A DNA stretch of 64,000 nt, from the NCBI GenBank assembly GCA_023703555.1, contig CP097968.1, positions 842,307-906,306 of the forward strand, read 5' to 3'. The translations under genes were made by a program, and so were the position numbers. Positions 26,368 to 43,181 of this stretch are shown in pieces (position 1 is the stretch's first letter; every line of letters starts with the position of its first letter). The stretch comes from SAR86 cluster bacterium (GTDB lineage Bacteria; Pseudomonadota; Gammaproteobacteria; Magnimaribacterales; TMED112). Below the pieces are notes generated by a model that saw nothing but the letters and a program-made list of their open reading frames with translations, did no database searches and had not been told where the DNA came from.

Positions 26368-26443
26368 TGGTGGAGCTATGCGGGATCGAACCGCAGACCT
26401 CCTGCGTGCAAAGCAGGCGCTCTCCCAGCTGAGCTATAGCCCC
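26368..26443 (-). tRNA. tRNA-Ala (anticodon UGC), CCA encoded
   Basis: Reverse complement reads GGGGCTATAGCTCAGCTGGGAGAGCGCCTGCTTTGCACGCAGGAGGTCTGCGGTTCGATCCCGCATAGCTCCACCA. It folds as a perfect cloverleaf with the G3:U70 Ala identity pair and anticodon loop CT-TGC-AC. Confidence 0.97.
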
Positions 26444-28925: not shown

Positions 28926-29738
28926 TTATTTTTCATCAAGGCTTTGAAACTTTTTAGATAGCTCGTCCTGTTGGCTAAGATTGTAATTAAAATCTATTAA
29001 AGCTCCTTCCCAATCTCCATACACAGGATTCGGAAGCATAAACCAAAAATTTCCCCAGTGAGAATCATATTTTTTAAAGATGTCGTTGCGCTCTATAACA
29101 CTTAAATTATTTTCTTCTGCCCCAACAAAATCACCAAGATTATCTCCAATTATCATTACAATCCTATATTTTTCTGCAATCCTTTGAATTCTTGAGTTTT
29201 TGTTTCGATCCCAGCCTTCTTGCTCATAACGCATTAAAAGTTGATCAATATTTTCTGAAAAAGTAAAGCCTAGCTGCTCAAGATTATTTTTTGTTGCTTC
29301 TTCAATTTCAACCACTCTGTTAGTTACAAAAAAGATTTCTAATCCAAGAGATATTGCATATCTTAGATATTCTTCAGCACCCTCAATATAATCAGCTTTC
29401 TCCTCTTTAGCCCAACTAATCCAGCCATCAGGATATGCAGATCGTTTTTTAATCATACGTGCTTGGTATGCAATATTGTTTAAAACAGTTTGATCAACAT
29501 CTAAGATAACTGCTGGTGGCTTTCCAGAATAATCAGTTTTTTGAACCAAAGCGGCTGTGTGACTTTTATCAGCAATTAAAGTAGGCAGCCTAGACATTGC
29601 AGCCCTATAGATGCTAGTGGTATTTGCCTTATACTCAGCAGAACTTTGTATGTAAAGTGTTCCAAGCAGGGATTCTTCTTCAAGATATTCAGTACTTAAA
29701 ACAAAAGAAAAAAATATTAAAGTTAGAAATCTTCCCAT
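28926..29738 (-). CDS. Class C acid phosphatase / 5'-nucleotidase, e(P4) family (HAD superfamily), secreted
   Basis: 270 aa with a signal peptide and the class C bipartite DDDD motif: AVILDVDQTVLNN ... FFVTNR ... IGDNLGDF. Confidence 0.8.
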   Translation of the reverse strand: MGRFLTLIFFSFVLSTEYLEEESLLGTLYIQSSAEYKANTTSIYRAAMSRLPTLIADKSHTAALVQKTDYSGKPPAVILDVDQTVLNNIAYQARMIKKRSAYPDGWISWAKEEKADYIEGAEEYLRYAISLGLEIFFVTNRVVEIEEATKNNLEQLGFTFSENIDQLLMRYEQEGWDRNKNSRIQRIAEKYRIVMIIGDNLGDFVGAEENNLSVIERNDIFKKYDSHWGNFWFMLPNPVYGDWEGALIDFNYNLSQQDELSKKFQSLDEK

Positions 29739-29772
29739 TTTGGTATTTTACATTGTATTTAACACAAGGTTA

Positions 29773-32349
29773 TTAGTTCCTTAGAAGGGAGAATTGGATA
29801 CTTATCATTCTGCCTCTAGGATCGTGAACCCTTGTATCATAGCTAAAGTCAGGTGCGTCATATAATAAAGGTGGGCCTTCGTCAAAAATGTTAATAATCG
29901 AGAAGGTTGTTTGCAAGGAAAAGTCAGTATTGGTTTTAAAAGCTCTAAAAAAATTATCCAATGGATATTCCAAAAATAAATCATGCACCAAGAAAGCATC
30001 AACTCTATTGGTATATCCAAGAGCTTGTGCGCTATTTGGTATTGATCTTAAATTTTCGTAACTATCAATAAATCTTGTAATCACTCCAGCTCGACTATCA
30101 TTTTTACTCCATACCAATTGGTTATTAATTCTAAATTTTGGCAATGAAAATGTATTATTATCAAAGTTAAATCTACCAACCCTGTTAATCATCACAGTGG
30201 AATCCAAACTCTCCGGAGTGAGGAACTCATCCAATTTCGTTCCTTTGAGGTCTATTGTGAATGTGCTGCTATCAAAGAAGTTAAATTCTTGAAAGTAATT
30301 GAAATCGATACCACTGACTAGTGTACTTGATTCATTAAAATATCTCGTTGTAACTCCAATCAAATCTCCTAAATTATTTCTTGTTATTGATGAGCCGTAG
30401 GGGTCAGATTCTATTAAAGCTTGTGCACTTTCAACCTCTATTCTGTTGGTATAGTCGATCTCCCATAAATCTAAAGAAACTTTTATTTGATTGTCTTGAT
30501 AATAAATGCCAAAGTTCGTATTTTGTGAGACTGATGGCTTTAATTCAGGATTTCCTAATTGGGCTTGCCTAACAAAAACACTTCCTTCAACATCTCTAAC
30601 ACTACCAAGTCTGATTTGACTTGAAAAAAGCTGTCCCATTGAGGGCATTTTAAAAGATTCGCCTTTTGCAATTCTCAGAGAAAGGTTTTCAAACGGCTTA
30701 AAATTTACAGAAAGTTTAGGATTAAATGATGAAAATTTATCTGCATCTTCATACCTTCCAGAAAATACTAAGGTAAATGATTTTGTAAAATCTCTACTTC
30801 CTTCAAAAAATAAAGACGATTTGTTTCTTGATCTTTCTACATTTTGCCCACCGCCCAAGAAAAATAAATCTGCTGTTTTAGTTAGCTTCCCATCTGAATC
30901 AAATTCAACTCTAGATAGTTCGTTAAATCGAATTTTTAGCCTGTCTCGACTTTGTTGAATACCAAAGCCAATATTTAAGTTAAGGTCCTTTTGAAACGTT
31001 CTGGCGATTAAATCAAAAACTGTCAAGCCTCCGGTTTTGTTTGACCTTTCAAAGCCCTTTATATAAGAAATAAGTGATGCTGAATTATTTGCTGGATTAA
31101 AAATGTCCCACTGTTCATTATTGCTTGATCCGCCAGACCCATTCAGTGCACTTAAAAATCTTGAATCAATAATATCTGGTCTTCGATGAAGATTTTCATG
31201 TTGACTATCAGTAACAGAAAATTCAACCTCAAAATCTCTGTAAATTAATTCGTACGCATAACTAAAATGGTGTTGTGAGATATCTTTTGGTGAAAAAGGT
31301 GAGGGGTATCTGCCTCCCAAAGGTCTTCCAAGCCATCTTACTGGAACATTAAATGGACTCCCACCAACACCTGGCATTATTTCTCTTGATAAAAATGGTA
31401 ATGCAGGATATGAGGGTGATTGAGGATTATCAATAACCTTTACATTTGATGCAATTAGCAAAAGAGAATGCTGAAAACTATTTAAGTTTAAATAAAATTT
31501 CTCATGTGACTCGTTATTTACTAAGTTAAATCTAGTGCCATACTGAAACCTGCAACGTCCAGATAAAATACCACCATTTTCAACACAATTTGGATCAGGA
31601 ACTAGGGCCCCTTCTTCATATTCCCCAGCGTAAGGTCCTTCTTCAACTGTATCTGCTTCGGTGAGGACAAACGAGTTCCCTAAGCCACTGACCGCTAATT
31701 CAGCAAGTTTTCTAAAGTCTATAACTGGTAGAGGGCTTCTCTGCAAGTTGTTATAGCCAAAGACAAATTTTAAGTCTTTGAAATTGGCTCCGTATAAGAA
31801 ACCAAAAGTATTATCGTTTTGATCGTAGTTAGCAGTTTGGCGACGTCCAAAATTAACTTTTAGCCCATTGAACTCTTTAAATGTTAAGACGTTGACAACA
31901 CCAGAAACTGCATCTGACCCGTAAGTTGTTGAGGCGCCTTCTTTTAAAATTTGTACTTCGCGTAATGCAACTTCAGGAATGATACCAATATCTATGTAAC
32001 TTCCCCCGTCATCAGAGGGAGTGCCTGCAAAAGTCTGTCTTTTGGAATTGATCAAAACAAGGGTAGATTCTTGTTCAAGACCCCTCAGGTTTATTGATGC
32101 CATTCCCTGATCTTGGCCCCCTAGAGTATTGCTTTGAAAACGCGAACCAGAAGAAGAAGTAATATATTGACTTAGCTCAGCAAAGCTTACCAGACCAAAA
32201 TCTTTAATTTGTTGGGTTTTAATTATTTCTTTTTCAACAGCATTTCCTGTTGTGCTTGTTAATAAACTTCCCGTGGTTACAACTTCTTCAATATCATCTG
32301 AAGAAAAAACATAAAATGAAATAATTAGTAAGACTAACCTCTTAAACAC
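29773..32349 (-). CDS. TonB-dependent receptor
   Basis: Plug and barrel, with TonB box DDIEEVVTTGS. The track start (32397) lies inside a terminator hairpin. I prefer GTG 32349-32347, which gives a clean signal peptide MFKRLVLLIISFYVFSS|DD. Confidence 0.85.
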   Translation of the reverse strand: MFKRLVLLIISFYVFSSDDIEEVVTTGSLLTSTTGNAVEKEIIKTQQIKDFGLVSFAELSQYITSSSGSRFQSNTLGGQDQGMASINLRGLEQESTLVLINSKRQTFAGTPSDDGGSYIDIGIIPEVALREVQILKEGASTTYGSDAVSGVVNVLTFKEFNGLKVNFGRRQTANYDQNDNTFGFLYGANFKDLKFVFGYNNLQRSPLPVIDFRKLAELAVSGLGNSFVLTEADTVEEGPYAGEYEEGALVPDPNCVENGGILSGRCRFQYGTRFNLVNNESHEKFYLNLNSFQHSLLLIASNVKVIDNPQSPSYPALPFLSREIMPGVGGSPFNVPVRWLGRPLGGRYPSPFSPKDISQHHFSYAYELIYRDFEVEFSVTDSQHENLHRRPDIIDSRFLSALNGSGGSSNNEQWDIFNPANNSASLISYIKGFERSNKTGGLTVFDLIARTFQKDLNLNIGFGIQQSRDRLKIRFNELSRVEFDSDGKLTKTADLFFLGGGQNVERSRNKSSLFFEGSRDFTKSFTLVFSGRYEDADKFSSFNPKLSVNFKPFENLSLRIAKGESFKMPSMGQLFSSQIRLGSVRDVEGSVFVRQAQLGNPELKPSVSQNTNFGIYYQDNQIKVSLDLWEIDYTNRIEVESAQALIESDPYGSSITRNNLGDLIGVTTRYFNESSTLVSGIDFNYFQEFNFFDSSTFTIDLKGTKLDEFLTPESLDSTVMINRVGRFNFDNNTFSLPKFRINNQLVWSKNDSRAGVITRFIDSYENLRSIPNSAQALGYTNRVDAFLVHDLFLEYPLDNFFRAFKTNTDFSLQTTFSIINIFDEGPPLLYDAPDFSYDTRVHDPRGRMISIQFSLLRN

Positions 32350-32365
32350 GAAATAGATTATATAT

Positions 32366-32395
32366 AAAAAAAGGGCAGGCCCAACGACCTGCCCC
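32366..32395 (-). terminator. Rho-independent terminator after the His-rich TBDR gene
   Basis: Minus strand reads GGGGCAGG-tcgttggg-CCTGCCC followed by TTTTTT(a). The stem is 7 bp of G/C, 23-52 nt downstream of the stop at 32418. Confidence 0.7.
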
Positions 32396-32417
32396 ATAAA
32401 AAGGAGTTTAATTTAAT

Positions 32418-34649
32418 TTAAAACTCTAAATTAAACCTAAGACCAAAATTAACCCCTGGAAGTGGCACCTCATCTTTGACATAGGAAGCATGATTTCTTG
32501 CAACCTCATCTAAAAGATTATTGGCAAAAAATGAAACACCAAGATTAAATTGACTAGATAGCCCAATCTCTTTTTTAACCAAAAGATTCAACATCTTGAA
32601 TCCTTCTGTTTCAGTTTCCCCATCTCCAATTATAGTTTGTCGATCAACATCTTTGAGAGTGAGTCTCATTCTGTAATCACTAGCCCTGTAAGATAATGTG
32701 TACAAACTTCTTGCTGGAACCAATCTAGGAACATTTTCTCCGTTACTGAATTCACCATTGACTGAATCTCTTCCATAGCTAAGCACAAATTCACCAGTAT
32801 CCGTAATGAATCTTCTACCAAATTCAAATTCATAGCCGTTAAATTCAGCATCCTGTTGAAGAAAATCCGCGTGGATCAAATCACCATGCTCTTCATGCTC
32901 ATCGTGATCTTCATCACCATGGTCCTCATCACCATGGTCCTCATCATGATGCTCTTCTAACTCATCTTGAAGATAAATATAATCGTCAATGTTATTTTGG
33001 AATAAAGTTAATTGACCAAAATAATCTCCATCATCAAAAAATAACGATCCCTCGAAGTTATTGGCTCTCTCTGAAGATAAGTTGATGTCACCTGTTTCAA
33101 ACCTGCCACGCGCTAAGTGTGGTCCATTCATTGCCATCGCAGTACCAGATGGAGCACTAGCAACACTTGAAAAACTTATATCGAAACTAACTGCATCAGT
33201 AAGCTGTCGACCAAGGCTTGCAGAGAAACTTAGATCGTCAAAATCTTTATCAAAATATTCAACTTCCATTTCTTCATGCTCATCATGATCCTCATCACCA
33301 TGATCCTCATCATCATGATCATCATGTCCTTCCTCTTCATGACCTTCTGTAATTGAGCCTTGTCTATTAACCTGATCATAGCGCAAACCTAAATCTAAGC
33401 TATAACCTGATAAATCAAGACCAGCATAATAGCCAAAATTTAAACTCTCGCTTTGCATTGGATCCATAAATGCTTCGTGTCCAGCAATGGATTCATCCAT
33501 GGAAAGAAAGTTCACCATTAATTTCTGAGATGATATGAGTCCTGATGTTGGAAGATCAAAGATAGCACCAAATTCTTGAGCAATGTTGGTAAAGACAGTT
33601 GGTCCCTCTTCATGACCATGATCGTCATGTTCTTCTTCATCATGATCACCTTCCTCTTCAGCATGCTGCTCTTGAAATGTATAATCAGTATCTCTAAAAA
33701 AGTAATCAACTTTATTTACAATAGAGCTATTTAAGACTAAACCACCACTGACATTTACAGCCTGTGAATCAGTGAAGGCATATATTCTTTCACCCTCGTG
33801 CTCATCGTGTCCTTCCTCTTCTTCACCCTCTTCTTCACTGTGTTCATCACCATGAAAAGGTATTCCATACTCTGTCTCTTGATCTTCAAGAGAGACACCA
33901 AGATAGCCCCAATCACCTGTAACTGAGAGGCCAACCCTTGAGGTTGTTGAACCAAAATCTGAATTTGCCAAAGTCTCAGCATCCATTTCATCATGATCCC
34001 CTTCTTCTTCATGCTCATCTTCCGAGTGAAGAATTGCACCATTTGGAATTGCATAATTTCCGAACTGGGAATCTTTGTAAGCCAAAGACAAATTTACACC
34101 TGCAACATTTTTTTGGTACGCAAAATTTTCAGCATTTCCCCAATTGACACTCTGTTTCTCAAAACCTAGGCTTCCAACTTGTTCCTCAAAATCAGTTTTT
34201 GCAATGGTGTTATCAATTACATTAATAACTCCTCCAATAGATCCTTTTGCATAAAGCAATGACGACGGGCCACGAATAATTTCAACTTGTGACACATTGT
34301 TAAGATCCACCTCATTTAAGTGATCCGCTCCCATGCCTGCGACGTCAGCGACACTAAGACCATTTCTAAGAATCTTTACCCTTCCATCTAAAAGCCCACG
34401 GATTGCTGGCTGACCAACAACTGCACCATAGTCCACTGAGGATACACCTAGCAATTCATCAAAGGATTCTCCAAGACTTTGTGTCCCTGAGTCCTCTAAA
34501 TCCTCTCCACTTACCACATGTATTGGGTCACCAATTTCTGATAATTGTCTATCATCACTTGTTAATGACGAAACAACTACCACCTCTTCAACTTCTTGTG
34601 ATACCAAGAATGACGATATAAAAATTAAACTTATTAAGATTTTTTTCAT
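32418..34649 (-). CDS. TonB-dependent receptor with five His/Asp/Glu-rich inserts (ZnuD-like metal receptor candidate)
   Basis: 743 aa with a signal peptide, TonB box EVEEVVVVSS, a plug (IRGPSSLLYAKGSIGGVINV) and a C-terminal ...RFNLEF. A strong AGGAGG lies 7 nt upstream. The five acidic His clusters are described in the findings. Confidence 0.9.
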   Translation of the reverse strand: MKKILISLIFISSFLVSQEVEEVVVVSSLTSDDRQLSEIGDPIHVVSGEDLEDSGTQSLGESFDELLGVSSVDYGAVVGQPAIRGLLDGRVKILRNGLSVADVAGMGADHLNEVDLNNVSQVEIIRGPSSLLYAKGSIGGVINVIDNTIAKTDFEEQVGSLGFEKQSVNWGNAENFAYQKNVAGVNLSLAYKDSQFGNYAIPNGAILHSEDEHEEEGDHDEMDAETLANSDFGSTTSRVGLSVTGDWGYLGVSLEDQETEYGIPFHGDEHSEEEGEEEEGHDEHEGERIYAFTDSQAVNVSGGLVLNSSIVNKVDYFFRDTDYTFQEQHAEEEGDHDEEEHDDHGHEEGPTVFTNIAQEFGAIFDLPTSGLISSQKLMVNFLSMDESIAGHEAFMDPMQSESLNFGYYAGLDLSGYSLDLGLRYDQVNRQGSITEGHEEEGHDDHDDEDHGDEDHDEHEEMEVEYFDKDFDDLSFSASLGRQLTDAVSFDISFSSVASAPSGTAMAMNGPHLARGRFETGDINLSSERANNFEGSLFFDDGDYFGQLTLFQNNIDDYIYLQDELEEHHDEDHGDEDHGDEDHDEHEEHGDLIHADFLQQDAEFNGYEFEFGRRFITDTGEFVLSYGRDSVNGEFSNGENVPRLVPARSLYTLSYRASDYRMRLTLKDVDRQTIIGDGETETEGFKMLNLLVKKEIGLSSQFNLGVSFFANNLLDEVARNHASYVKDEVPLPGVNFGLRFNLEF

Positions 34650-34691
34650 TTTGTTTCCTCCTTTTTAAAAAAAATTATTTCTATTAAAAAT

Positions 34692-34955
34692 TTATTTTTT
34701 CGGAGGTGCTCGAGATAAAGAATCTCTAAGAATTTTGTCGTGAGTAAGTTGTCTTAGTGAATTACTAACTACACTTGCAATAGGGTTTTTGTATATATTC
34801 TTATTTATAAAAAAATTTGTAGAATTTTCACTCTCACAAACGTGACAAGATATTACCTCAACCTCTTCGTGAAAATGATCGTGGCTAATTTCATGTAAGG
34901 GAAAGCTCACTCCCAAAATGAAAATTAGAAATAACTCAAAATACTTTTTATTCAT
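34692..34955 (-). CDS. Small exported/membrane-anchored protein with His cluster and CxxC
   Basis: 87 aa with an N-terminal hydrophobic segment, then HEISHDHFHEE and CHVCESE. It lies 42 nt upstream of the His-rich TBDR on the same strand. No obvious SD sequence. Confidence 0.5.
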   Translation of the reverse strand: MNKKYFELFLIFILGVSFPLHEISHDHFHEEVEVISCHVCESENSTNFFINKNIYKNPIASVVSNSLRQLTHDKILRDSLSRAPPKK

Positions 34956-35033
34956 TCAGGCAGATCACATCAGAAAATCCATTAAAATCTCAATTCATAT
35001 AATTTAATTCTTATTTTAATTTATATTTCTTAC

Positions 35034-36395
35034 TTATTTAGATAGTTCAATTAATTGGTTTGGCTTATTTTTATGTTTTTTTAATTTAAATTCATCATAT
35101 AGATTTCCTGTAGCATCAAAGGCTTGGAATCGTAAATCATTACCTGATATCTTGATTATCTGGTACAGCTGTGTATCTTCTAAAATTTTTTTTGCGTAGT
35201 TGCCTTTCGTAAATTCATACATTTTCGGGCCACTTACCGATACAACATAGACTGTCCCTACATCGGGATCATAAGCTTGTTGGTAACCATTAGGCACATT
35301 TTCAACCTTAGCTCCGGCAAGGTCTCCAGTTCGAGAATATACATGGTCATGACCGTTGAGCACTAGATCAACTTTAAATTCATCAAACAATGGCTTCCAT
35401 AGTTTCCTTAAATGAGGATTGTCACGATCGGTTCCAGGTGAATAAATAGGATGATGAAAAGTAACTACTGTCCATTTATTCGGATTTTTCTCTAAAACAG
35501 ATCTAATCCAAGGAACTTGCTCCTCTTGCGCAATATTTGAGTCGAGAGAAATGAATCTTACTCCTTGATAATCCAAGTAATAAACTGTCTCTTTCAAACG
35601 CTCATCTGGTATATTTTGAATAGGAAAGACAAATTGTGGTTGCCAGTGAGCACTTATTTCAGGAGCAGTTCTCTTAGCTTCTGAATATTTTACATACTCA
35701 TGATTTCCAGGAGTAGCTAACAGAGGTATTGTTGCATTTACCCAGTCTGGGCCTTCGTGCCACTCACCCCAATTGGAATCCATATCTTTAATATCCACAA
35801 GATCTCCAGCATGAAGTATAAAAGACGCTCTCGGAGCATCACGAAAAGCCTCCCTAAATACTCTTGACCAGTGAGTTCTTACTTCGTTCTGAGCATCACC
35901 AAAATAGATAAAACTAAAGGGTTCTGGGTAAGAGCTTGCTGTCTTGAAATGGAAATATTCACTCCAATTTACTCCATCTCCCACTCTATATACATAAAGG
36001 GTATTTGGATTCAAGCTCCTTATGGTAATACTATGGTAATGAGCTTGATTTATATCACTCTGAAAAAATAAAGTTTTTGCCTCGAATAAATCTGGGTTTA
36101 AGTCGCGCCCACTGGCATTTGCAACTGCTATTTGGACAAAAGCTTTTTTTACAGAAGTATCTGTTCTCCATGTGATGGATTGCGTTGTTGCTGGATTATC
36201 TTCCCAAGTCAGAACTATACGATCCGGCATTGGAGTTGGTTCATACATTTCTACAGATGAATATTTAACGATACCCGAATTATCATGAGCTAATGCATAG
36301 AGGCCTAAAAATAAACCTAGGAGTACTGCTCTTGCAAACTTAAACATTGTTTTTAACAAGTTGATTAAAGATGTATTTAATATGTTTTGGCTCAT
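35034..36395 (-). CDS. Secreted metallophosphoesterase, purple-acid-phosphatase-like
   Basis: Calcineurin-like motifs GDAQN, HAGDLVD, GNHEY, HHPIYS and GHDHVYSR, with an N-terminal PAP-type beta domain. An alternative start at 36347 (MFKFARAVLLGL...) gives a cleaner signal peptide. Confidence 0.8.
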   Translation of the reverse strand: MSQNILNTSLINLLKTMFKFARAVLLGLFLGLYALAHDNSGIVKYSSVEMYEPTPMPDRIVLTWEDNPATTQSITWRTDTSVKKAFVQIAVANASGRDLNPDLFEAKTLFFQSDINQAHYHSITIRSLNPNTLYVYRVGDGVNWSEYFHFKTASSYPEPFSFIYFGDAQNEVRTHWSRVFREAFRDAPRASFILHAGDLVDIKDMDSNWGEWHEGPDWVNATIPLLATPGNHEYVKYSEAKRTAPEISAHWQPQFVFPIQNIPDERLKETVYYLDYQGVRFISLDSNIAQEEQVPWIRSVLEKNPNKWTVVTFHHPIYSPGTDRDNPHLRKLWKPLFDEFKVDLVLNGHDHVYSRTGDLAGAKVENVPNGYQQAYDPDVGTVYVVSVSGPKMYEFTKGNYAKKILEDTQLYQIIKISGNDLRFQAFDATGNLYDEFKLKKHKNKPNQLIELSK

Positions 36396-36448: not shown

Positions 36449-36525
<77 letters not shown>

Positions 36526-36570: not shown

Positions 36571-37215
36571 CTACTTATCCCATATCACTTTATAAATTAA
36601 ATAACCTAATAATCCTCCCATAATCTGAAAAATAATAAATAATGGAGCATCATTAAGATTAATGCCGGCAAATGTATCTGAAAAAATTCTCCCAAATGTA
36701 ACTGCAGGATTAGCAAAAGAAGTTGATGCTGTAAACCAATAGGCAGCACCAATATAAGAAGCTACCATTATTGGAACTTTTTTAGCATCTGAAGCAAAGA
36801 TAATCATTATTAGGCCGGCAGTAGCGATTAGCTCTGAAAACCACAAATTTGAACCTGTTCTTATTTTTGTTGATAATTCAATCAATGGTAAATTGAACAT
36901 TAAATTAGCAAGTACTGCCCCTAATAATCCTCCCAAACATTGAACTGCAGCGTAACTAATAAAAGCTGGAAATTTTAATTCTCCTCTAATGTAGCTAACT
37001 AAGGACACAACAGGATTAAAATGAGCGCTCAACGGAGCAAAAATTGTAATCAAAAAGTATAAACCCCAAAACGTAGCTAAGGAATTTGCTAAAAGTGCAA
37101 TACCATCGTTTCCATCCGATAAATTTTGCCCCATTATGCCTGAACCCACTACAACACAAACCAATAAAGCTGTGCCTGTAAATTCAGCAAATATTTTATT
37201 CTTAAATTTACCCAT
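36571..37215 (-). CDS. MIP-family channel (aquaglyceroporin, AqpS-like arsenite channel candidate)
   Basis: 214 aa with six TM segments and two half-helix motifs, HFNPVVSL (NPV) and NPAVTFGR (NPA). Overlaps arsC by 8 nt. Confidence 0.8.
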   Translation of the reverse strand: MGKFKNKIFAEFTGTALLVCVVVGSGIMGQNLSDGNDGIALLANSLATFWGLYFLITIFAPLSAHFNPVVSLVSYIRGELKFPAFISYAAVQCLGGLLGAVLANLMFNLPLIELSTKIRTGSNLWFSELIATAGLIMIIFASDAKKVPIMVASYIGAAYWFTASTSFANPAVTFGRIFSDTFAGINLNDAPLFIIFQIMGGLLGYLIYKVIWDK

Positions 37216-37594
37216 TCAATAGTTCAGTATTAATTTTCATCTCTATTAAGTCTCTAATATTATCAAAATCATCATCGTTCATATGTTTTGGATCAGGTAT
37301 CTTCCAATCTAAAGTTTTGGTATTTGGAAAAAAAGGACATTCATCGCCACAACCCATTGTTACAACATAATCAAATCTTTCGTTAGAAAAATTTGTGACA
37401 TTCTTTGGTTGAATTTCGTCAAATATAATACCAATCCTTTTGAGAGAATCTATAGCTTTTGGATTAACAGTTTTAGCAGGCTGAGATCCAGCTGATTTTG
37501 CAAAAATTTTATCACCATAAATTCTATTACTAATTTGTTCAGCTAATTGACTTCTGCATGCATTCTCAACACATACAAACAATACATTTAGCAT
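37208..37594 (-). CDS. arsC: Arsenate reductase, LMW-PTPase family
   Basis: 128 aa with VLFVCVENACRSQLAE (the CX5R P-loop) and TMGCGDECP (distal Cys pair). Confidence 0.85.
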   Translation of the reverse strand: MLNVLFVCVENACRSQLAEQISNRIYGDKIFAKSAGSQPAKTVNPKAIDSLKRIGIIFDEIQPKNVTNFSNERFDYVVTMGCGDECPFFPNTKTLDWKIPDPKHMNDDDFDNIRDLIEMKINTELLNG

Positions 37595-37595
37595 A

Positions 37596-40115
37596 CTAAA
37601 AGCTGTATTTTACACCTAAAGATATTGATGAAGCAGTGGAATAGCTTTCGAAAACTTCATTACCTTGTAGAGCTTCATAGGGGTCTTCTAATAAATTTCT
37701 CAGCTTTAAAGTGATGTCAAGCGTACCATCTAAAGCGTAGTAAGTTCTATTATAAACTACGTCCAACTGAGCTGGTAAATCTTCCATAACATTGGGGATA
37801 GTATCAACTCCAAGCTCTCTTATTCTATTGCCAACATCATTGTAAACAACGCTAAACCTTGAATCATCAGCTCCATAAAAACCAAACTGAAGATTAAAAA
37901 TATCATCAGGCTGCCCAACAAGAGGTCTATCGTCATAAGAGGATAAAGTTATGTATTCAGGATTGGTTACTGCATTTGAATCTGTATAGGTATAGTTCAC
38001 TTTTCCAAAAAAATCATACCCAGATATTAATTCGCCAAATTGTTTTTGAAATTCAAATTCTGCTCCCTCAAGAGTTGCAGATGCAGCATTTCTGTAACTT
38101 ACGTAAGAGTCGGTTGCTGCTGCTTCTAGAACTTGTTCAATTGGGTTTATAAAGCTCTTCTCAAAATAGGAGATCGTTAAAAACTCATCGAAGCCAAAGT
38201 AATACTCATATCGCAAATCAATATTTTCAATTTCCGCTGAAGTTAATTCTGCAAATCCTCTTTCAAACCTATCCGTTTCGAAGTTAACAAATAATACTGG
38301 AGACATTTCTCTAAATTGTGGTCTAGAAACTGTTTCACTAAAACCAATCCTTACTTGCATATTTTCTGCCAACTCATAAGTTAAAGTTAATGCGGGCAAT
38401 AATTTATCCAACTCATCAACAGATTGAATATTTGTTTGATTGCCAAAAAATTGTTGAGTATTTGTTTCGATAAAAGATTCTTCATTTCGAGCTCCGATGC
38501 TTAAACTCAATTGATCTGAAATATCTGTTTCCAGTGAAAAATAGTAGGCATCTATAGTCATATCACCAGTGTAATCATCGGTATTTAGCGATAATTCTTG
38601 CAACACCAAACCAGTACGATCATATCTAAAGTTTTGTGGATGCATTATTGAGTTAATTGGCTGTCTTCTAAATTCTTGATCAGCAAATAAAGCCCCATTA
38701 GTAAAATCTGGCAAGAATGCATATCTTTTCACGTCTGTTTGTCGGTTTTTTTCTGAATGAATTAAACCAAATTTGAAATCTATTAATAAATCCCCAGTTT
38801 CGATAGGATAGTAAAAATCTACTGCCGCCTCGGATGAGTCATCATTTAACCAGGAAAAATTTGTGTAATTACTATCTTGTCTTCGGGAAAATTCATATGC
38901 ACCATTGTTAAATTCATAAAAATGTTCTCTTTCAAATGGTGATTCTCTTTTACCAGTTGAACCATTCAATCTCCAATCAATGGATAACCCGTTTAATAAG
39001 TCGTGTTTACCTGACAATGTTACAGTTTTAATCTCTCGTTCAACCCATTCAGATTTTGTTCTACGCTCATCAAAATCTGCTTCAACATTCCTACCCTCAC
39101 TAATTGTTGTCCTACTATCTGTTTTTCTTACAATTAATCCTGTGAACTGTAGATAATTAAAATCATCAATATCCCACCCAAGAGTACTAAGAAAATTTGT
39201 ATCTATTTGATAATTTGCTTTTTTTACTGCGTAGTTATTTCTTCTAACTAAATTTTCTCCTGACCCACTTGACCATTCTGATCGAAGAATATCAGGTTGA
39301 TTATCTTTACTTGAATCGTAACCTGCACTAATTAATAGACCCAATCTGCCCAGCTCGTTTAAGTCATAAGCATTGCCATAACTGACATCAAAACCGAAAT
39401 CTGGATATAGTTCGGTTTTAAGTGGTTGCCAAGTACCAGTAAATCCTTGAGCAGCATATTGAATATCGTAATATGATGAAGTCGCTAGAGAAATGAAATC
39501 CGAATTTGCATAAAGTGGTGCTAGTGATGCAGGCAAGTCTCTGTCACCCATATCAAAACCTGTCCAATCATTATCGTATTGCGGCATCAAATCTACTTCC
39601 TCGCCCGTGGCTAAAGAATCGTAAGAAGTAGAAAAACTAATTTCAGTAAATTCTTGGTCTGGTATCAATTTTGTTCTCATATCGATCACTCCGCCACCAA
39701 ATTCACCTGGATATTGAGCGGAGTATGTTTTTTGTACTAAAACGGAGTCCAATATTGAAGTTGGAAAAATATCAAAGGGGACAACTCTTTTTAAAGGTTC
39801 GGGGCTAGGCAATAAAACACCATTCAACAACGCTGAGGAATATCTCTCACCTAATCCTCTAACATAAACATATTTTCCTTTTACTAAACTTAAACCCGTA
39901 ATTCTTTTTAATGCATCAGCAGCATCGCTATCTCCAGCAACACTAATGTCTTCTGCATCAATAACATTAGAAATTTCACTAGTATCTCTTTTCTCATCTG
40001 GAATAAAACTTTCTACAACCCTAACCTCTTCAACACTATCACTGGCCACATCTGTTTCTTGGGCATAAGAAATTATTGATATTAAAAGTGATGATATTGT
40101 GAACAAAATTCTCAT
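37596..40115 (-). CDS. TonB-dependent receptor
   Basis: 839 aa with a signal peptide ...SYAQE, TonB box VEEVRVVES, plug YVRGLGERYSSALLNG...PGEFGGGVIDMRTK and a C-terminal GVKYSF. Confidence 0.9.
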   Translation of the reverse strand: MRILFTISSLLISIISYAQETDVASDSVEEVRVVESFIPDEKRDTSEISNVIDAEDISVAGDSDAADALKRITGLSLVKGKYVYVRGLGERYSSALLNGVLLPSPEPLKRVVPFDIFPTSILDSVLVQKTYSAQYPGEFGGGVIDMRTKLIPDQEFTEISFSTSYDSLATGEEVDLMPQYDNDWTGFDMGDRDLPASLAPLYANSDFISLATSSYYDIQYAAQGFTGTWQPLKTELYPDFGFDVSYGNAYDLNELGRLGLLISAGYDSSKDNQPDILRSEWSSGSGENLVRRNNYAVKKANYQIDTNFLSTLGWDIDDFNYLQFTGLIVRKTDSRTTISEGRNVEADFDERRTKSEWVEREIKTVTLSGKHDLLNGLSIDWRLNGSTGKRESPFEREHFYEFNNGAYEFSRRQDSNYTNFSWLNDDSSEAAVDFYYPIETGDLLIDFKFGLIHSEKNRQTDVKRYAFLPDFTNGALFADQEFRRQPINSIMHPQNFRYDRTGLVLQELSLNTDDYTGDMTIDAYYFSLETDISDQLSLSIGARNEESFIETNTQQFFGNQTNIQSVDELDKLLPALTLTYELAENMQVRIGFSETVSRPQFREMSPVLFVNFETDRFERGFAELTSAEIENIDLRYEYYFGFDEFLTISYFEKSFINPIEQVLEAAATDSYVSYRNAASATLEGAEFEFQKQFGELISGYDFFGKVNYTYTDSNAVTNPEYITLSSYDDRPLVGQPDDIFNLQFGFYGADDSRFSVVYNDVGNRIRELGVDTIPNVMEDLPAQLDVVYNRTYYALDGTLDITLKLRNLLEDPYEALQGNEVFESYSTASSISLGVKYSF

Positions 40116-40238: not shown

Positions 40239-43181
40239 CTATTCTGATGAACTAGCTGGCTTAAATGCCCAATTATCAGTCCAATCGGCATCTGCTGAAG
40301 GAACAGCTCCGACATGTCCTGTTACCTCGAAGAAGTCTCCTGCAACAGTAACTGGGGTTAAAGCTGACTCCGTAGCACCATTAACATATCCTGCTAATGA
40401 AGCGCCTCCTGCTGAAGCAGTATTAGTATTTGAGGATAATAAAGCTTCAATTTGAGCAGCAGTAGGGCCACTAGTATCTTCCTGTGCTAACGTTGCACAA
40501 GCAAACAAGTTACCATCATAGTCATGACCTTCTCCGGCAGTACCGTCACCATTAAAGTCATAAGTTTCATCATTATCTATATCCCAACATGTGCTTGCTC
40601 CTTCATCAGCAACCACTGAGTTATAAATATTCAGACCTGTACCCTCTCTAAGTAGTACTGCCTGCCCATCTCTACTAACAATTGTTAAGTTAGCAAATGT
40701 TGGTAATGATCTTGGCTCTCTATCCATATCTGAACCGTAGTTATCAGCTTCGATAGATCTGTCAACATCAAATGTTTGACCTTGATTTTGCCAAACAATT
40801 GCATGCTGTACATTACCTCGCCAACCATCAGTCCAATCTATAGAGTCATCCGAAGCACCCATTACAAGTAAGTGCTTAGCATTAACAGTACCTCCAAAGA
40901 ACTCTACACCGTCATCAGATGTATTGTAGGTCTGAATATAATTTAGTTCAGTTAGGTTACCCACAGCTTGGAATGCAATACCATTCAATTCATCTTCTGA
41001 GTTAAATAGTCTTCCAGCATGTTTTAATACAAGGTAGAAAATATTTCCACTATTGTCAGCATCGTCAATACCACCGTAAGAGCCTGAACCTCCTTCACCA
41101 TCTGCAGTACAATTTGCTGTACCAACATCTGAAAGATTACAAGCTGTTTGACTAGCTAGACCATTAATAACCAAACCACCCCAGTCGGATGCCACACTTG
41201 ACATATCTGCAGCTGTATCTCTAACTTCTCTACCTGAAGTCATAGTGACGGGAGCACCAGGTGCACCATTAATCATTATTTTAGAATGAATTGGGACAAG
41301 AACGGCATCAAAATCTGTTATTGCACCTTCACCAGCATAACTGTCACTGTATAGGGTAACACCAGGATCAATTTGCAAGTACTTAGCACCAGACCCATCT
41401 GCAGCCCCAGTTCCAACTTTTACTTGTTTAACCATCAAGTATGGTAAGCCACCACCGACAAGTCTTATATTCTTGTCTTCGGATTGAGCTGAAACAAGCT
41501 CACATGCCGCACCAGCACCATCTTTCATATTTCCAAGTGTCGTTCCATATGGACACTCAAATGAATCCATATGAAGACCAAAAGTCCAGCCTTTGGTCCA
41601 ATCGTTAGCATCACTTTCAACGCCACCAATAAAAGAGGCATCTTCTAGATTTGCATCTTGTGCACTAGCAGTCGCTAATGAATATCCTGAAGCAAGTGGG
41701 TGAGTAATATAAGCTGCATTTCTCATACTTCCATGTAAGCCAGAAGCACCAAAATGGGCGCCATTATTTCCTGTTAAGATATAGTCGCTTACACTAAAAG
41801 CATTTGGAAAATCTGCTTCGCCAACTTCTTCGTCTTGCACTAAGCCCCCTTGGCCAATTGCGCCACACTTAATGGAGTCAAAAAGAGTTCCAGCAAAGCT
41901 TAAACCGTTTTCTTGAGCCATAAAGCGATATGTTTCATCATCATCGACATCAACACAACCTGAACTACCTTCTGCGTTTCCTGATACTATTGAATTCAAA
42001 AGTTTTACACCAGTTCCCTCTCTAAGTTGTAGGGTATCGCCACCATAATCTTGGACAAAAGTAATATTTGCCAGAGCTGGGAATGATCTTGGCGATCTAT
42101 CCATATCACTGCCATAATTATCAGCTTCGATAACATTGTCTTTAGATCTTGCTGCATCTGTTACAGGGAAAAGTGTTTGTATAACCACACCGTATTGTGC
42201 AAAACCTCTCCATCCGTCTGTCCAGTCAACAGAGTCATCTGAAGCACCGGTGACAACAAAATGCTTCATACCTACAGTACCACCAAAAAATTCAATCCCA
42301 TCGTCTGAACCATTATGTACCTGAATGTAGTTAACAGATGTTCCAGAACCAACTGCTTGAAAAGCAACGCCATTCAATTCATCGTCATTAGAGAACCTAT
42401 AGCCTGCATATTTAACTTGCATGTAATTGATTGAACCAGAATTATCTTCATCGTCTGTGCCGCCGTAGTACCCTGAGTCTCCTTCACCTTCTGCAGTACA
42501 TGCAGCTGTTCCAAGGTCTGCTTCATTACAATTATTTTGAGCTGCGAGACCAGATATAACTAAACCACCCCATTGTGCTTCAGCACCATCTGTTACTTCA
42601 CCTGTTAAATCACTTACACCGGTCATGATGACAGGAGCTGAGGCAGTACCATTCACATTCAACTGAGAATTTGGACTAACAACCAAGTAATCCACATCAG
42701 AATCAGAGACTGAATCGCCGAGAGATGCAACAAAGCTTGTTGCGTCTTCAAATCCGGCACCTGCGGTACCAACTATTGTTGTACCTGCTTCAATTGTCAA
42801 TGATCCGTTATCTCCCGCACTTGAGCCATCGGCGTTAATCCCTGCACCAACAAATACTGCTCCATTTAAAGCATAAATTGCATCAGAGCTTATTGTTACA
42901 TCAGATGCTATTGGGGCTGATGATGGGAAAGTAAGAATACACACAGATTTACTTTGACCATCAAAGTCAGTAGCAACAATGCCTGAATCTTCACCAGCAG
43001 CACATGCAGAAGGTGCAGGTGTTGGTTCTGGTGTTGGTTCTGGCGTTGGAGCCGGCGTTGGCGCTGGCGTTGGAGCCGGCGTTGGAGCAGGAGTAGGAGC
43101 TGGCTCACTTGAACCACCACCACAAGCTGCAACAAATAAAGTCGTTATTACAATCGAAATAGGATTAAAAAAATTTTTCAT
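40239..43181 (-). CDS. Large lipoprotein of unknown function with Pro/Thr linker and two tandem copies of a roughly 450-aa module (beta-helix-like)
   Basis: 980 aa with lipobox LFVAAC (Cys20), a GGGSSE(PAPTP)n linker, then two homologous halves (about aa 76-535 and 540-975). Details are in the findings. Confidence 0.85.
43011..43103 (-). repeat. 12-nt-period tandem repeat encoding the (A/E)PTP linker of the lipoprotein
   Basis: Plus strand reads ggtgttggttct ggtgttggttct ggcgttggagcc ggcgttggcgct ggcgttggagcc ggcgttggagca..., encoding [31 protein letters not shown]. Confidence 0.9.

Follow-up and report, generated by a model that had tools for sequence, protein, structure and literature searches.

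A 64,000-nt stretch of the genome of a SAR86 cluster bacterium (contig CP097968.1 of GenBank assembly GCA_023703555.1, positions 842,307 to 906,306 of the forward strand), referred to below in its full length as the window, carries a two-gene unit in which a small open reading frame (ORF) of 87 amino acids (aa), the leader, directly precedes the gene of a 743-aa TonB-dependent receptor. The unit is a variant which combines two known kinds of element, a ZnuD-like receptor and an arrest-peptide leader of the CruR/CutF kind, and it probably serves the arrest-peptide-switched acquisition of a trace divalent metal, with Zn(II) the most likely metal and Cu(II) a close second. The anatomy of the unit, its conservation, a fixed spacing within the leader, the topology of the receptor loops and the covariation of a pairing in the mRNA were all observed directly and are described in turn, with the coordinates compiled in Table 1. 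An earlier model-made interpretation of the same letters (the sequence-only reading) had regarded the pair as a high-capacity system for divalent metal capture, and this is still the best reading of the two genes; zinc, which it considered the best-precedented metal, is not established, and the precedent set by CruR is copper.

To judge from its sequence, the leader is most likely a divergent CruR/DUF2946-like RAPP arrest peptide rather than a capture partner of the receptor. CruR of Bordetella pertussis (Bp2923, DUF2946) has an export signal, a CxxC motif and a RAPP motif 2-3 residues before the stop codon; among over 2000 members of its family the spacing between CxxC and RAPP is conserved to 1-2 residues, and CruR is the first gene of operons which often encode TonB-dependent transporters, for example BfrG (PMC9426467). 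Along these lines, a survey published in 2025 found small proteins with a signal peptide and a terminal RAPP or RGPP to be enriched upstream of TonB-receptor genes (PMC12992588). The likeness of the window unit to CruR-BfrG comprises the small first gene, an N-terminus that resembles an export signal, CxxC, a fixed spacer, the C-terminal RAPP and the TonB receptor directly downstream, whereas CruR counts 145 aa and the window leader only 87, the latter with an additional His motif.

A small leader ORF lies ahead of the receptor gene in 77 of 85 loci, and by inspection all leader relatives begin with a hydrophobic segment that follows basic residues. In an alignment of 30 diverse relatives (A2), two residues, C37 and P85, are invariant, while four others (H25, R82, A83 and P84) are kept in at least 90% of the sequences; the remainder of the leader is hypervariable (mean column identity 29%) at fixed length. 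The CxxC motif is present in 59 of the 77 leaders, namely those of the SAR86 and OCS116 type, and the spacer from CxxC to RAPP amounts to 40 residues in 23 loci, to 41 in another 23 and to 42 in 13, which covers every one of the 59 CxxC-bearing loci. The C-terminus reads [RQ][AG]PP followed by a tail of 1-5 residues throughout the 77 loci, the sole exception being RASP in locus L006. Across the six frames of the window, the leader is the only ORF that ends in R[AG]PP, and one of its relatives has been named 'DUF2946 family protein' by NCBI. The sequence-only reading would have been contradicted by a small ORF that is not conserved or not translated; apart from its presence in 77 of 85 loci, the pooled ratio of nonsynonymous to synonymous changes per site (pN/pS) came to 0.39 over 16 independent pairs, and the leader ORF is thus translated and under selection. 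In several other loci (L002, L036, L072, L073, L084 and others) good -35/-10 boxes end 5-11 nt before the ATG of the leader, a feature that is not uniform; the mRNA from which the leader is translated may be nearly leaderless.

The Pro-Pro codons of RAPP contain an anti-Shine-Dalgarno sequence, CCUCC, which is complementary to the Shine-Dalgarno (SD) sequence GGAGG of the receptor gene, and these two elements are paired in both the minimum free energy (MFE) fold and the centroid fold of the window mRNA, where they enclose a small AU hairpin. Of 76 loci, 72 have an MFE fold in which at least three of the four SD core bases pair with the 3' end of the leader, and in 67 of the 76 the duplex is stronger than that formed by synonymous recodings of the same peptide, with means of -9.9 versus -7.6 kcal/mol. 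Furthermore, the two strands covary. The SD sequence AGAGG of SAR92 is accompanied by CCUCU at the leader stop codon in 14 of 14 cases, GGAGU by GCUCC (Ala-Pro codons) in 11 of 11, and GGAGG, in all 33 cases, by CCUCC (20), CCUU (9) or GCUCC (4); a single SD of the form AAAGG is matched by CCUU. The anti-SD of every class is located inside the footprint of a RAPP-arrested ribosome. The enclosed-hairpin layout recurs in related loci, with an intergenic length of 35-50 nt in SAR86. In SAR92 loci (L007, L014 and L032, for example) the intergenic region extends over ~75 nt and holds two conserved G+C-rich hairpins within the anti-SD/SD helix, at a position where SAR86 has the single AU hairpin.

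It can be envisaged that the leader is targeted for export via its signal-like N-terminal segment, and that the His motif and the Cys/CxxC would be presented at a fixed distance from RAPP, the first Cys lying ~45 residues ahead of it. When arrested at RAPP, the ribosome would have the Pro-Pro codons in its P and A sites; it would hold this His/Cys segment ~45-57 residues away from the peptidyl-transferase centre, that is, just out of the ribosome, and would at the same time keep the ribosome-binding site of the receptor gene open, such that the receptor could be translated. Upon release of the stall and termination the helix would re-form and translation of the receptor would cease. Metal bound to the nascent His/Cys segment would be expected to shorten the stall and to shut off the receptor, a polarity taken from CruR which suits an uptake gene. 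In the case of CruR, the downstream genes can be expressed while the ribosome is stalled at RAPP, and copper lifts the stall (PMC9426467); its arrest was also shown in vitro, where the P and A sites were occupied by the Pro-Pro codons (PMC12992588). In CutF from Rhodobacter capsulatus, a Cu-induced stall melts a hairpin that shields the ribosome-binding site of the next gene (10.1101/2025.02.05.636593); CutF-CutO resembles the switch proposed for the window unit in its exported nascent peptide of DUF2946 type, the C-terminal proline stall of which opens an mRNA stem over a ribosome-binding site. On the other hand, CutF carries CxxxC and PPP, and copper induces its stall and thereby turns on the detoxifying oxidase CutO, whereas the downstream gene in the window encodes an uptake receptor, for which a polarity opposite to that of CutF would be expected. 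SecM-secA and ApdA/ApdP likewise unite an export signal with a C-terminal RAPP or RAGP arrest motif, and their stall regulates the downstream gene (PMC10951233); these peptides monitor the secretion machinery, in contrast to the window leader with its metal-ligand motifs ahead of a metal receptor.

The receptor is a member of the ZnuD clade of TonB-dependent receptors, as the sequence-only reading had proposed. Pfam PF07715 (Plug, 71.7 bits) and PF00593 (TonB_dep_Rec barrel, 63.7 bits) both exceed their cut-offs. The closest solved relative by sequence is ZnuD (PDB 4rdr), with E = 9e-30 for the single protein in HMMER and E = 1e-54 for a profile of 16 family members, and ZnuD is also the best fold in Foldseek (E = 3.9e-37, template modelling score 0.74-0.88), with heme receptors and the copper receptor OprC ranking lower. 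An AlphaFold2 (AF2) model built from the family alignment, with a predicted template modelling score of 0.72, has 22 strands joined by periplasmic turns of 2-7 residues, the fold known from ZnuD (TdfJ) of Neisseria meningitidis (PDB 4RDR/4RDT/4RVW). Past the signal peptide, the segment VEEVVVVS is presumably the TonB box; E21, E22 and V25 are invariant (alignment A1), and the C-terminus, LEF, has an aromatic last residue. Identity to ZnuD is only ~21%. ZnuD is a host-adapted protein, whereas the window receptor belongs to a free-living marine organism and has an arrest-peptide leader ahead of it.

The buried zinc site of ZnuD is formed by Asp99, His100, Glu340 and His499 (PMC4557270). In the alignment, for which residue numbers were corrected for a 14-residue offset in the PDB chain, three of these four ligands fall on invariant residues of the receptor, D109, H110 and H511, found in 85 of 85 sequences; the plug Asp-His pair and the loop His of ZnuD are thus conserved. 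Candidates for the equivalent of Glu340 are the invariant E327 and E392 and the near-invariant E331 (85 sequences). Sub-sequence matches in the PDB for this region, for instance NAP1, were rejected as chance acidic matches. A conserved buried site would accordingly be made up of the plug residues Asp109-His110, of His511 and probably of one invariant Glu.

The proposal of a switched metal receptor has to be held against a number of adverse points. Stalling itself, the shortening of the stall by metal, the identity of the metal and transport by the receptor are all steps that we infer. The window leader gave no match in Pfam and NCBIfam, where DUF2946 (PF11162, gathering score 23.7 bits) was not reached, and among the 30 relatives DUF2946, although the only recurrent Pfam family, appeared below threshold in 5, with a best E of 0.0043. 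SAR92 leaders retain a single Cys, the first of CxxC, together with the His motif, and the spacer of 40-42 residues compares with 45 in CruR. The leader has no obvious SD sequence of its own, and the best promoter ahead of it in the window (34956-35000), TTGAGA-18-TGTGAT, is a weak one with a 4/6 match. The window fold taken alone is weak (-9.6 kcal/mol, z = -1.2), so that the argument for the pairing is carried by its conservation, and the Wilcoxon value of 6e-12 for the duplex against its recodings stems from loci that are phylogenetically related. As regards the receptor, ZnuD (NF038289) is the best family in NCBIfam at 181.2 bits, to be read against a curated equivalog cut-off of 950; the equivalent of Glu340 was not mapped, the central region having no ZnuD alignment in profile and sub-sequence searches against the PDB; and the residues of the His clusters described below have a predicted local distance difference test score (pLDDT) below 50 in the AF2 model, which indicates predicted disorder. 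Finally, a receptor of the ZnuD kind would be expected to be under Zur control or to have znuABC or zur next to it; neither znuABC nor Zur was found among the 25 window ORFs scanned, and the Zur/Fur boxes for which the sequence-only reading had suggested a scan gave no match to the gammaproteobacterial consensus at up to 3 mismatches in the 64-kb window. No shared operator is visible upstream of the leader on inspection of 77 loci either, and regulation that rests on the leader is consistent with both of these absences.

With respect to the metal, zinc is estimated to come first, though well short of a firm assignment, copper follows, and another metal or a mixture (Ni, Co, Cd) is a lesser possibility. 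The same anatomy would also suit copper acquisition, with a leader that senses Cu via CxxC like CruR and a receptor that imports Cu(II), and this is a possible reading, if a distinctly less probable one than switched metal acquisition at large. It draws on the fact that the only characterised leaders of the class, CruR and CutF, are copper-specific, which belongs with the adverse points above, and that Cu represses the CruR-headed TonB-receptor operon whereas Fe does not and Zn has no more than a moderate effect. CxxC is moreover a classical Cu-binding motif, and by the Irving-Williams series the affinity of His, Asp and Glu ligands for Cu(II) is no lower than that for Zn(II), which is counted for copper here. 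In favor of zinc, on the other hand, the nearest relative of the receptor is ZnuD and not OprC: TIGR01778 was not among the family matches, and OprC stands well below ZnuD by fold. The conserved receptor site is Asp/His/His as in ZnuD, with neither Cys nor Met, and the SAR92 leaders dropped the second Cys but kept the His motif. The copper-linked partners known from CruR operons (PepSY_TM, PCuAC, YcnI, CopC) are not adjacent in the loci examined; in the window unit no PepSY_TM gene follows the receptor, in contrast to the CruR operon.

Switched acquisition of the metal, whichever it is, might alternatively follow the mode of Bordetella CruR, in which Rho is blocked by the stalled ribosome and terminates transcription within the intergenic region once the ribosome is released, with no sequestration of the SD sequence. 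This mode, although shown for CruR as the founder of the class and in principle able to coexist with SD masking, is improbable for the window unit. The intergenic region of CruR comprises 162 nt, is C-rich with a C>G bubble and holds a Rho-dependent terminator, whereas that of the window is an AT-rich 42 nt engaged in SD pairing, similarly short in SAR86 loci as a whole, in which no C-rich, G-poor unstructured tract is evident; covariation between SD and anti-SD has no role in a Rho model. An intrinsic terminator was seen only 3' of the receptor, with none between leader and receptor. It follows directly on the receptor stop codon, with the sequence GGGGCAGG...CCTGCCC and then a T-run, and bears out the earlier statement that the pair is closed off by a terminator of its own.

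The sequence-only reading had described the small His/CxxC protein as a dedicated partner in metal capture. The ORF is indeed present 42 nt upstream of the receptor, with HEISHDHFHEE and CHVC; the partner role gives way to the traits of a CruR/DUF2946-type RAPP leader and to the SD pairing. It is very unlikely that the 87-aa product persists after export as a His/Cys protein that binds metal and works together with the receptor, for instance as a chaperone in the periplasm or a metallophore at the surface. Its signal-like N-terminus, His motif and CxxC would agree with such a function, as would purifying selection and conservation beside the receptor, yet a variable sequence of fixed length outside Cys, H25 and RAPP suits a spacer better than a folded binding protein, and a chaperone role leaves the invariant C-terminal RAPP and the codon covariation with the downstream SD unexplained. 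The CruR protein, for comparison, is undetectable and was judged to be short-lived.

The special feature of the receptor is a set of five clusters rich in His, Asp and Glu. Re-reading of the ORF showed that the coordinates and counts of the sequence-only reading for receptor and clusters were all exact, and the same 3, 4, 5, 6 and 7 His (25 in total) were obtained. Hence 25 of the 31 His of the receptor reside within 110 of its 743 residues (hypergeometric P = 5e-17). In TonB-dependent receptors strand 1 rises from the periplasmic plug, and the loops after odd strands are extracellular. In the 22-strand AF2 model each cluster follows an odd strand and precedes the next even one, and all five are therefore extracellular, as had been supposed; the suggestion of successive barrel loops holds less strictly, the loops being L2, L3, L4, L6 and L8. 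The start of cluster 2 (HGDEHSE...) aligns with the start of cluster 1 in loop 3 of ZnuD (241-HSHEYDD), where a His/Asp/Glu cluster thus opens loop 3 as in the window receptor; ZnuD has two clusters, both in loop 3, as against five spread over as many loops here. The flexible loops of ZnuD have been proposed to act as a 'fishing net' (PMC4557270). By analogy, the five disordered loops, dense in His, Asp and Glu, would form a low-affinity, high-capacity 'fishing net' that concentrates scarce metal from seawater and hands it over to the buried site for TonB-driven import.

The length of these loops evolves rapidly via slippage of short in-frame repeats. Cluster 5 contains the perfect direct repeat that had been reported earlier, TCATCACCATGGTCC at 32911 and 32926, which Tandem Repeats Finder lists as a 15-nt unit in 2.4 copies with 100% match (32911-32946); a further 15-nt unit in cluster 4 (33280-33325) occurs in 3.1 copies with 90% match. 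A relative that is 98% identical (P0001) differs in cluster 5 by one extra GDEDH unit, i.e. by exactly one 15-nt repeat, and the slippage polymorphism anticipated in the sequence-only reading is thereby confirmed and in frame. Across the 85 loci, the loops span 30-66 (L2), 12-47 (L3), 12-37 (L4), 4-50 (L6) and 10-45 (L8) residues, with 0-15 His per loop. At the loop bases H266, E287, R288, E327 and H329 are invariant, and H208 is found in 84 of 85. The escalation from 3 to 7 His is real in the window receptor and is not conserved in homologues, which show patterns such as 6-6-5-6-4 or 5-5-6-5-5. As loop length and His count vary so widely, it is a coincidence of the window sequence, and a meaning for the gradient was rejected. 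In locus L006, from a metagenome-assembled genome of Pseudomonadales, the leader ends in RASP and the receptor loops are the most reduced, with 4 residues in L6 and one cluster by threshold; switch and loops may be decaying together there. It is hardly to be expected that the inserts are low-complexity expansions born of slippage and merely tolerated, or variable so as to evade phages or grazers, with no role in metal capture, since, for all the loop lengths of 4-66 residues, the members nearly devoid of inserts, the perfect short tandem repeats with copy-number polymorphism and the distant relatives with anything from 0 to 5 clusters, the inserts keep to a narrow composition of His, Asp, Glu and Gly, in five loops of constant position, among species only 45-50% identical, their bases are anchored by invariant His (H266, H329, and H208 but for one sequence), and loop 3 of ZnuD, which binds metal, has this composition as well.

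Receptor homologues are numerous, with more than 3,378 at E <= 1e-10. The 120 best of them (46-98% identical) all carry clusters at the same five positions, which are also occupied in most of the 85 loci from SAR86, SAR92/Porticoccaceae and OCS116. At least 574 of 600 candidate stretches were confirmed in a scan with one genome per species, and the 80 scan loci that were kept derive from SAR86, from SAR92/Porticoccaceae, including the cultured SAR92 strain HTCC2207 (locus L007), and from some alphaproteobacterial OCS116/PS1 single-cell genomes, a distribution that makes SAR86 the most likely origin of the window with its 34% GC. In an exhaustive search of 1.84 billion cluster representatives, 127 full-length relatives were counted. 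Those at 28-45% identity form a continuum in cluster number; over the 127, none, one, two, three, four and five clusters occur in 28, 29, 31, 20, 15 and 4 relatives, respectively, and in one of them a single loop contains over 50 His. In a distant ZnuD-like protein of 868 aa (P0315), a ~170-residue loop consists almost entirely of His/Asp/Glu repeats, and the protein contains 66 His. Multiple His/acid loops are thus a common and apparently undescribed theme of ZnuD-related receptors, with the clade of the window at the upper end. The sequence-only reading had considered the whole architecture undescribed to its knowledge. The arrangement of leader and receptor is in fact already described; for the multi-cluster loops, common as they are in databases, no paper was found, and the literature, largely without subscription journals, likewise yielded no account of this receptor family and no zinc-type CruR.

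Only leader and receptor stay together across differing genomic contexts. SAR92 loci are flanked by hisBH and asmA/mutY and the flanks vary in SAR86; no functional partner such as znuABC or PepSY is conserved near related loci. Two more distant, Bacteroidota-like relatives with multiple His loops (L085, L086) have no RAPP leader. The leader-receptor unit was also seen in genomes labelled Alphaproteobacteria (L059, L060, L069 and L076 from OCS116/PS1 single cells; L070, L074 and L025), and the arrest motif is RGPP, not RAPP, in four of these loci. Either marine oligotrophs have exchanged the unit horizontally, or the single-cell assemblies are contaminated.

Few heterotrophic bacteria of the surface ocean are as abundant as SAR86 and SAR92, and to our knowledge the sensing and acquisition of zinc and copper in these groups are essentially uncharacterised. 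The leader-receptor unit is present in hundreds of species-level genomes. If the switched acquisition of metal is correct, the unit would extend metal-sensing arrest peptides beyond copper and beyond pathogens, and would represent a compact regulatory design free of transcription factors with clear support from covariation. It would then also supply a candidate marker gene by which trace-metal stress could be traced in metatranscriptomes from the ocean. The junction of leader and receptor is small and the locus is carried by HTCC2207, which makes the system experimentally tractable. A further-reaching view can be offered only tentatively: the leader might be the first non-copper RAPP/CruR sensor, for zinc or for divalent metals more broadly, and act purely at the level of translation via unmasking of the SD sequence; streamlined SAR86 and SAR92 might thus control trace-metal uptake with no transcription factor, and the five-loop polyhistidine receptor might rank among the major routes of picomolar zinc scavenging in abundant marine heterotrophs.

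Table 1. Features of the leader-receptor unit and of adjacent genes (positions counted from the first letter of the window).
Feature	Position	Strand	Remarks
Leader ORF	34692..34955	(-)	87 aa; 42 nt upstream of receptor ORF
Hydrophobic N-terminal segment of leader, signal-peptide-like, FELFLIFILGVSFP	34899..34940	(-)	sequence inspection
His motif HEISHDHFHEE	34863..34895	(-)	putative metal-sensing part
CHVC (CxxC) motif	34836..34847	(-)
RAPP (CGA GCA CCT CCG)	34701..34712	(-)	putative arrest motif, then KK and stop
Anti-SD CCUCC within Pro-Pro codons (CCU CCG)	34702..34706	(-)	40 nt 5' of GGAGG
Intergenic region	34650..34691	(-)	42 nt; AT-rich, small internal hairpin
SD GGAGG of receptor gene	34657..34661	(-)
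Receptor ORF	32418..34649	(-)	743 aa
Signal peptide at receptor N-terminus, MKKILISLIFISSFLVS		(-)	sequence inspection
TonB-box-like VEEVVVVS	34569..34592	(-)	after signal peptide; sequence inspection
Plug-apex Asp109-His110	34320..34325	(-)	aligned with ZnuD Asp99-His100 (HMMER)
Cluster 1, aa 208-222, loop L2	33984..34028	(-)	between strands 3 and 4 (185-196, 232-245)
Cluster 2, aa 266-287, loop L3	33789..33854	(-)	between strands 5 and 6
Cluster 3, aa 327-348, loop L4	33606..33671	(-)	between strands 7 and 8; starts with invariant E327, H329
Cluster 4, aa 436-461, loop L6	33267..33344	(-)	between strands 11 and 12
His511	33117..33119	(-)	aligned with ZnuD His499 (HMMER)
Cluster 5, aa 565-589, loop L8	32883..32957	(-)	between strands 15 and 16
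Intrinsic terminator	32372-32395	(-)	closes the two-gene unit; 10-bp stem, 7 G-C pairs, T-run
Second TonB-dependent receptor ORF	29773-32397		3' of terminator; probable GTG start near 32347, after TATAAT box
Class B acid phosphatase	28926-29738		after second TonB receptor
Purple acid phosphatase	35034-36395		just upstream of leader

The genes on both sides of the unit, 28926-32397 and 35034-36395, may constitute a cluster for organophosphate acquisition beside the metal receptor. In many SAR86 loci a similar receptor of ~855-900 aa comes after the His-rich one, and L001 adds an alkaline phosphatase. Further along the window, a channel of the MIP family (36571-37215) overlaps a low-molecular-weight phosphatase/ArsC-like gene (37208-37594), a pair which looks like an arsenate reductase with its aquaglyceroporin; at a distance of 1 nt the ArsC-like gene is followed by another TonB-type receptor (37596-40115). 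The genes for tRNA-Ala(UGC) and tRNA-Ile(GAU), which usually stand together in the 16S-23S spacer, are single and 10 kb apart (26368-26443 and 36449-36525); rRNA was not searched for. The 980-aa ORF at 40239-43181, for which Pfam gave no match, lies in the only stretch of raised G+C content in the window (0.40-0.41 versus ~0.34).

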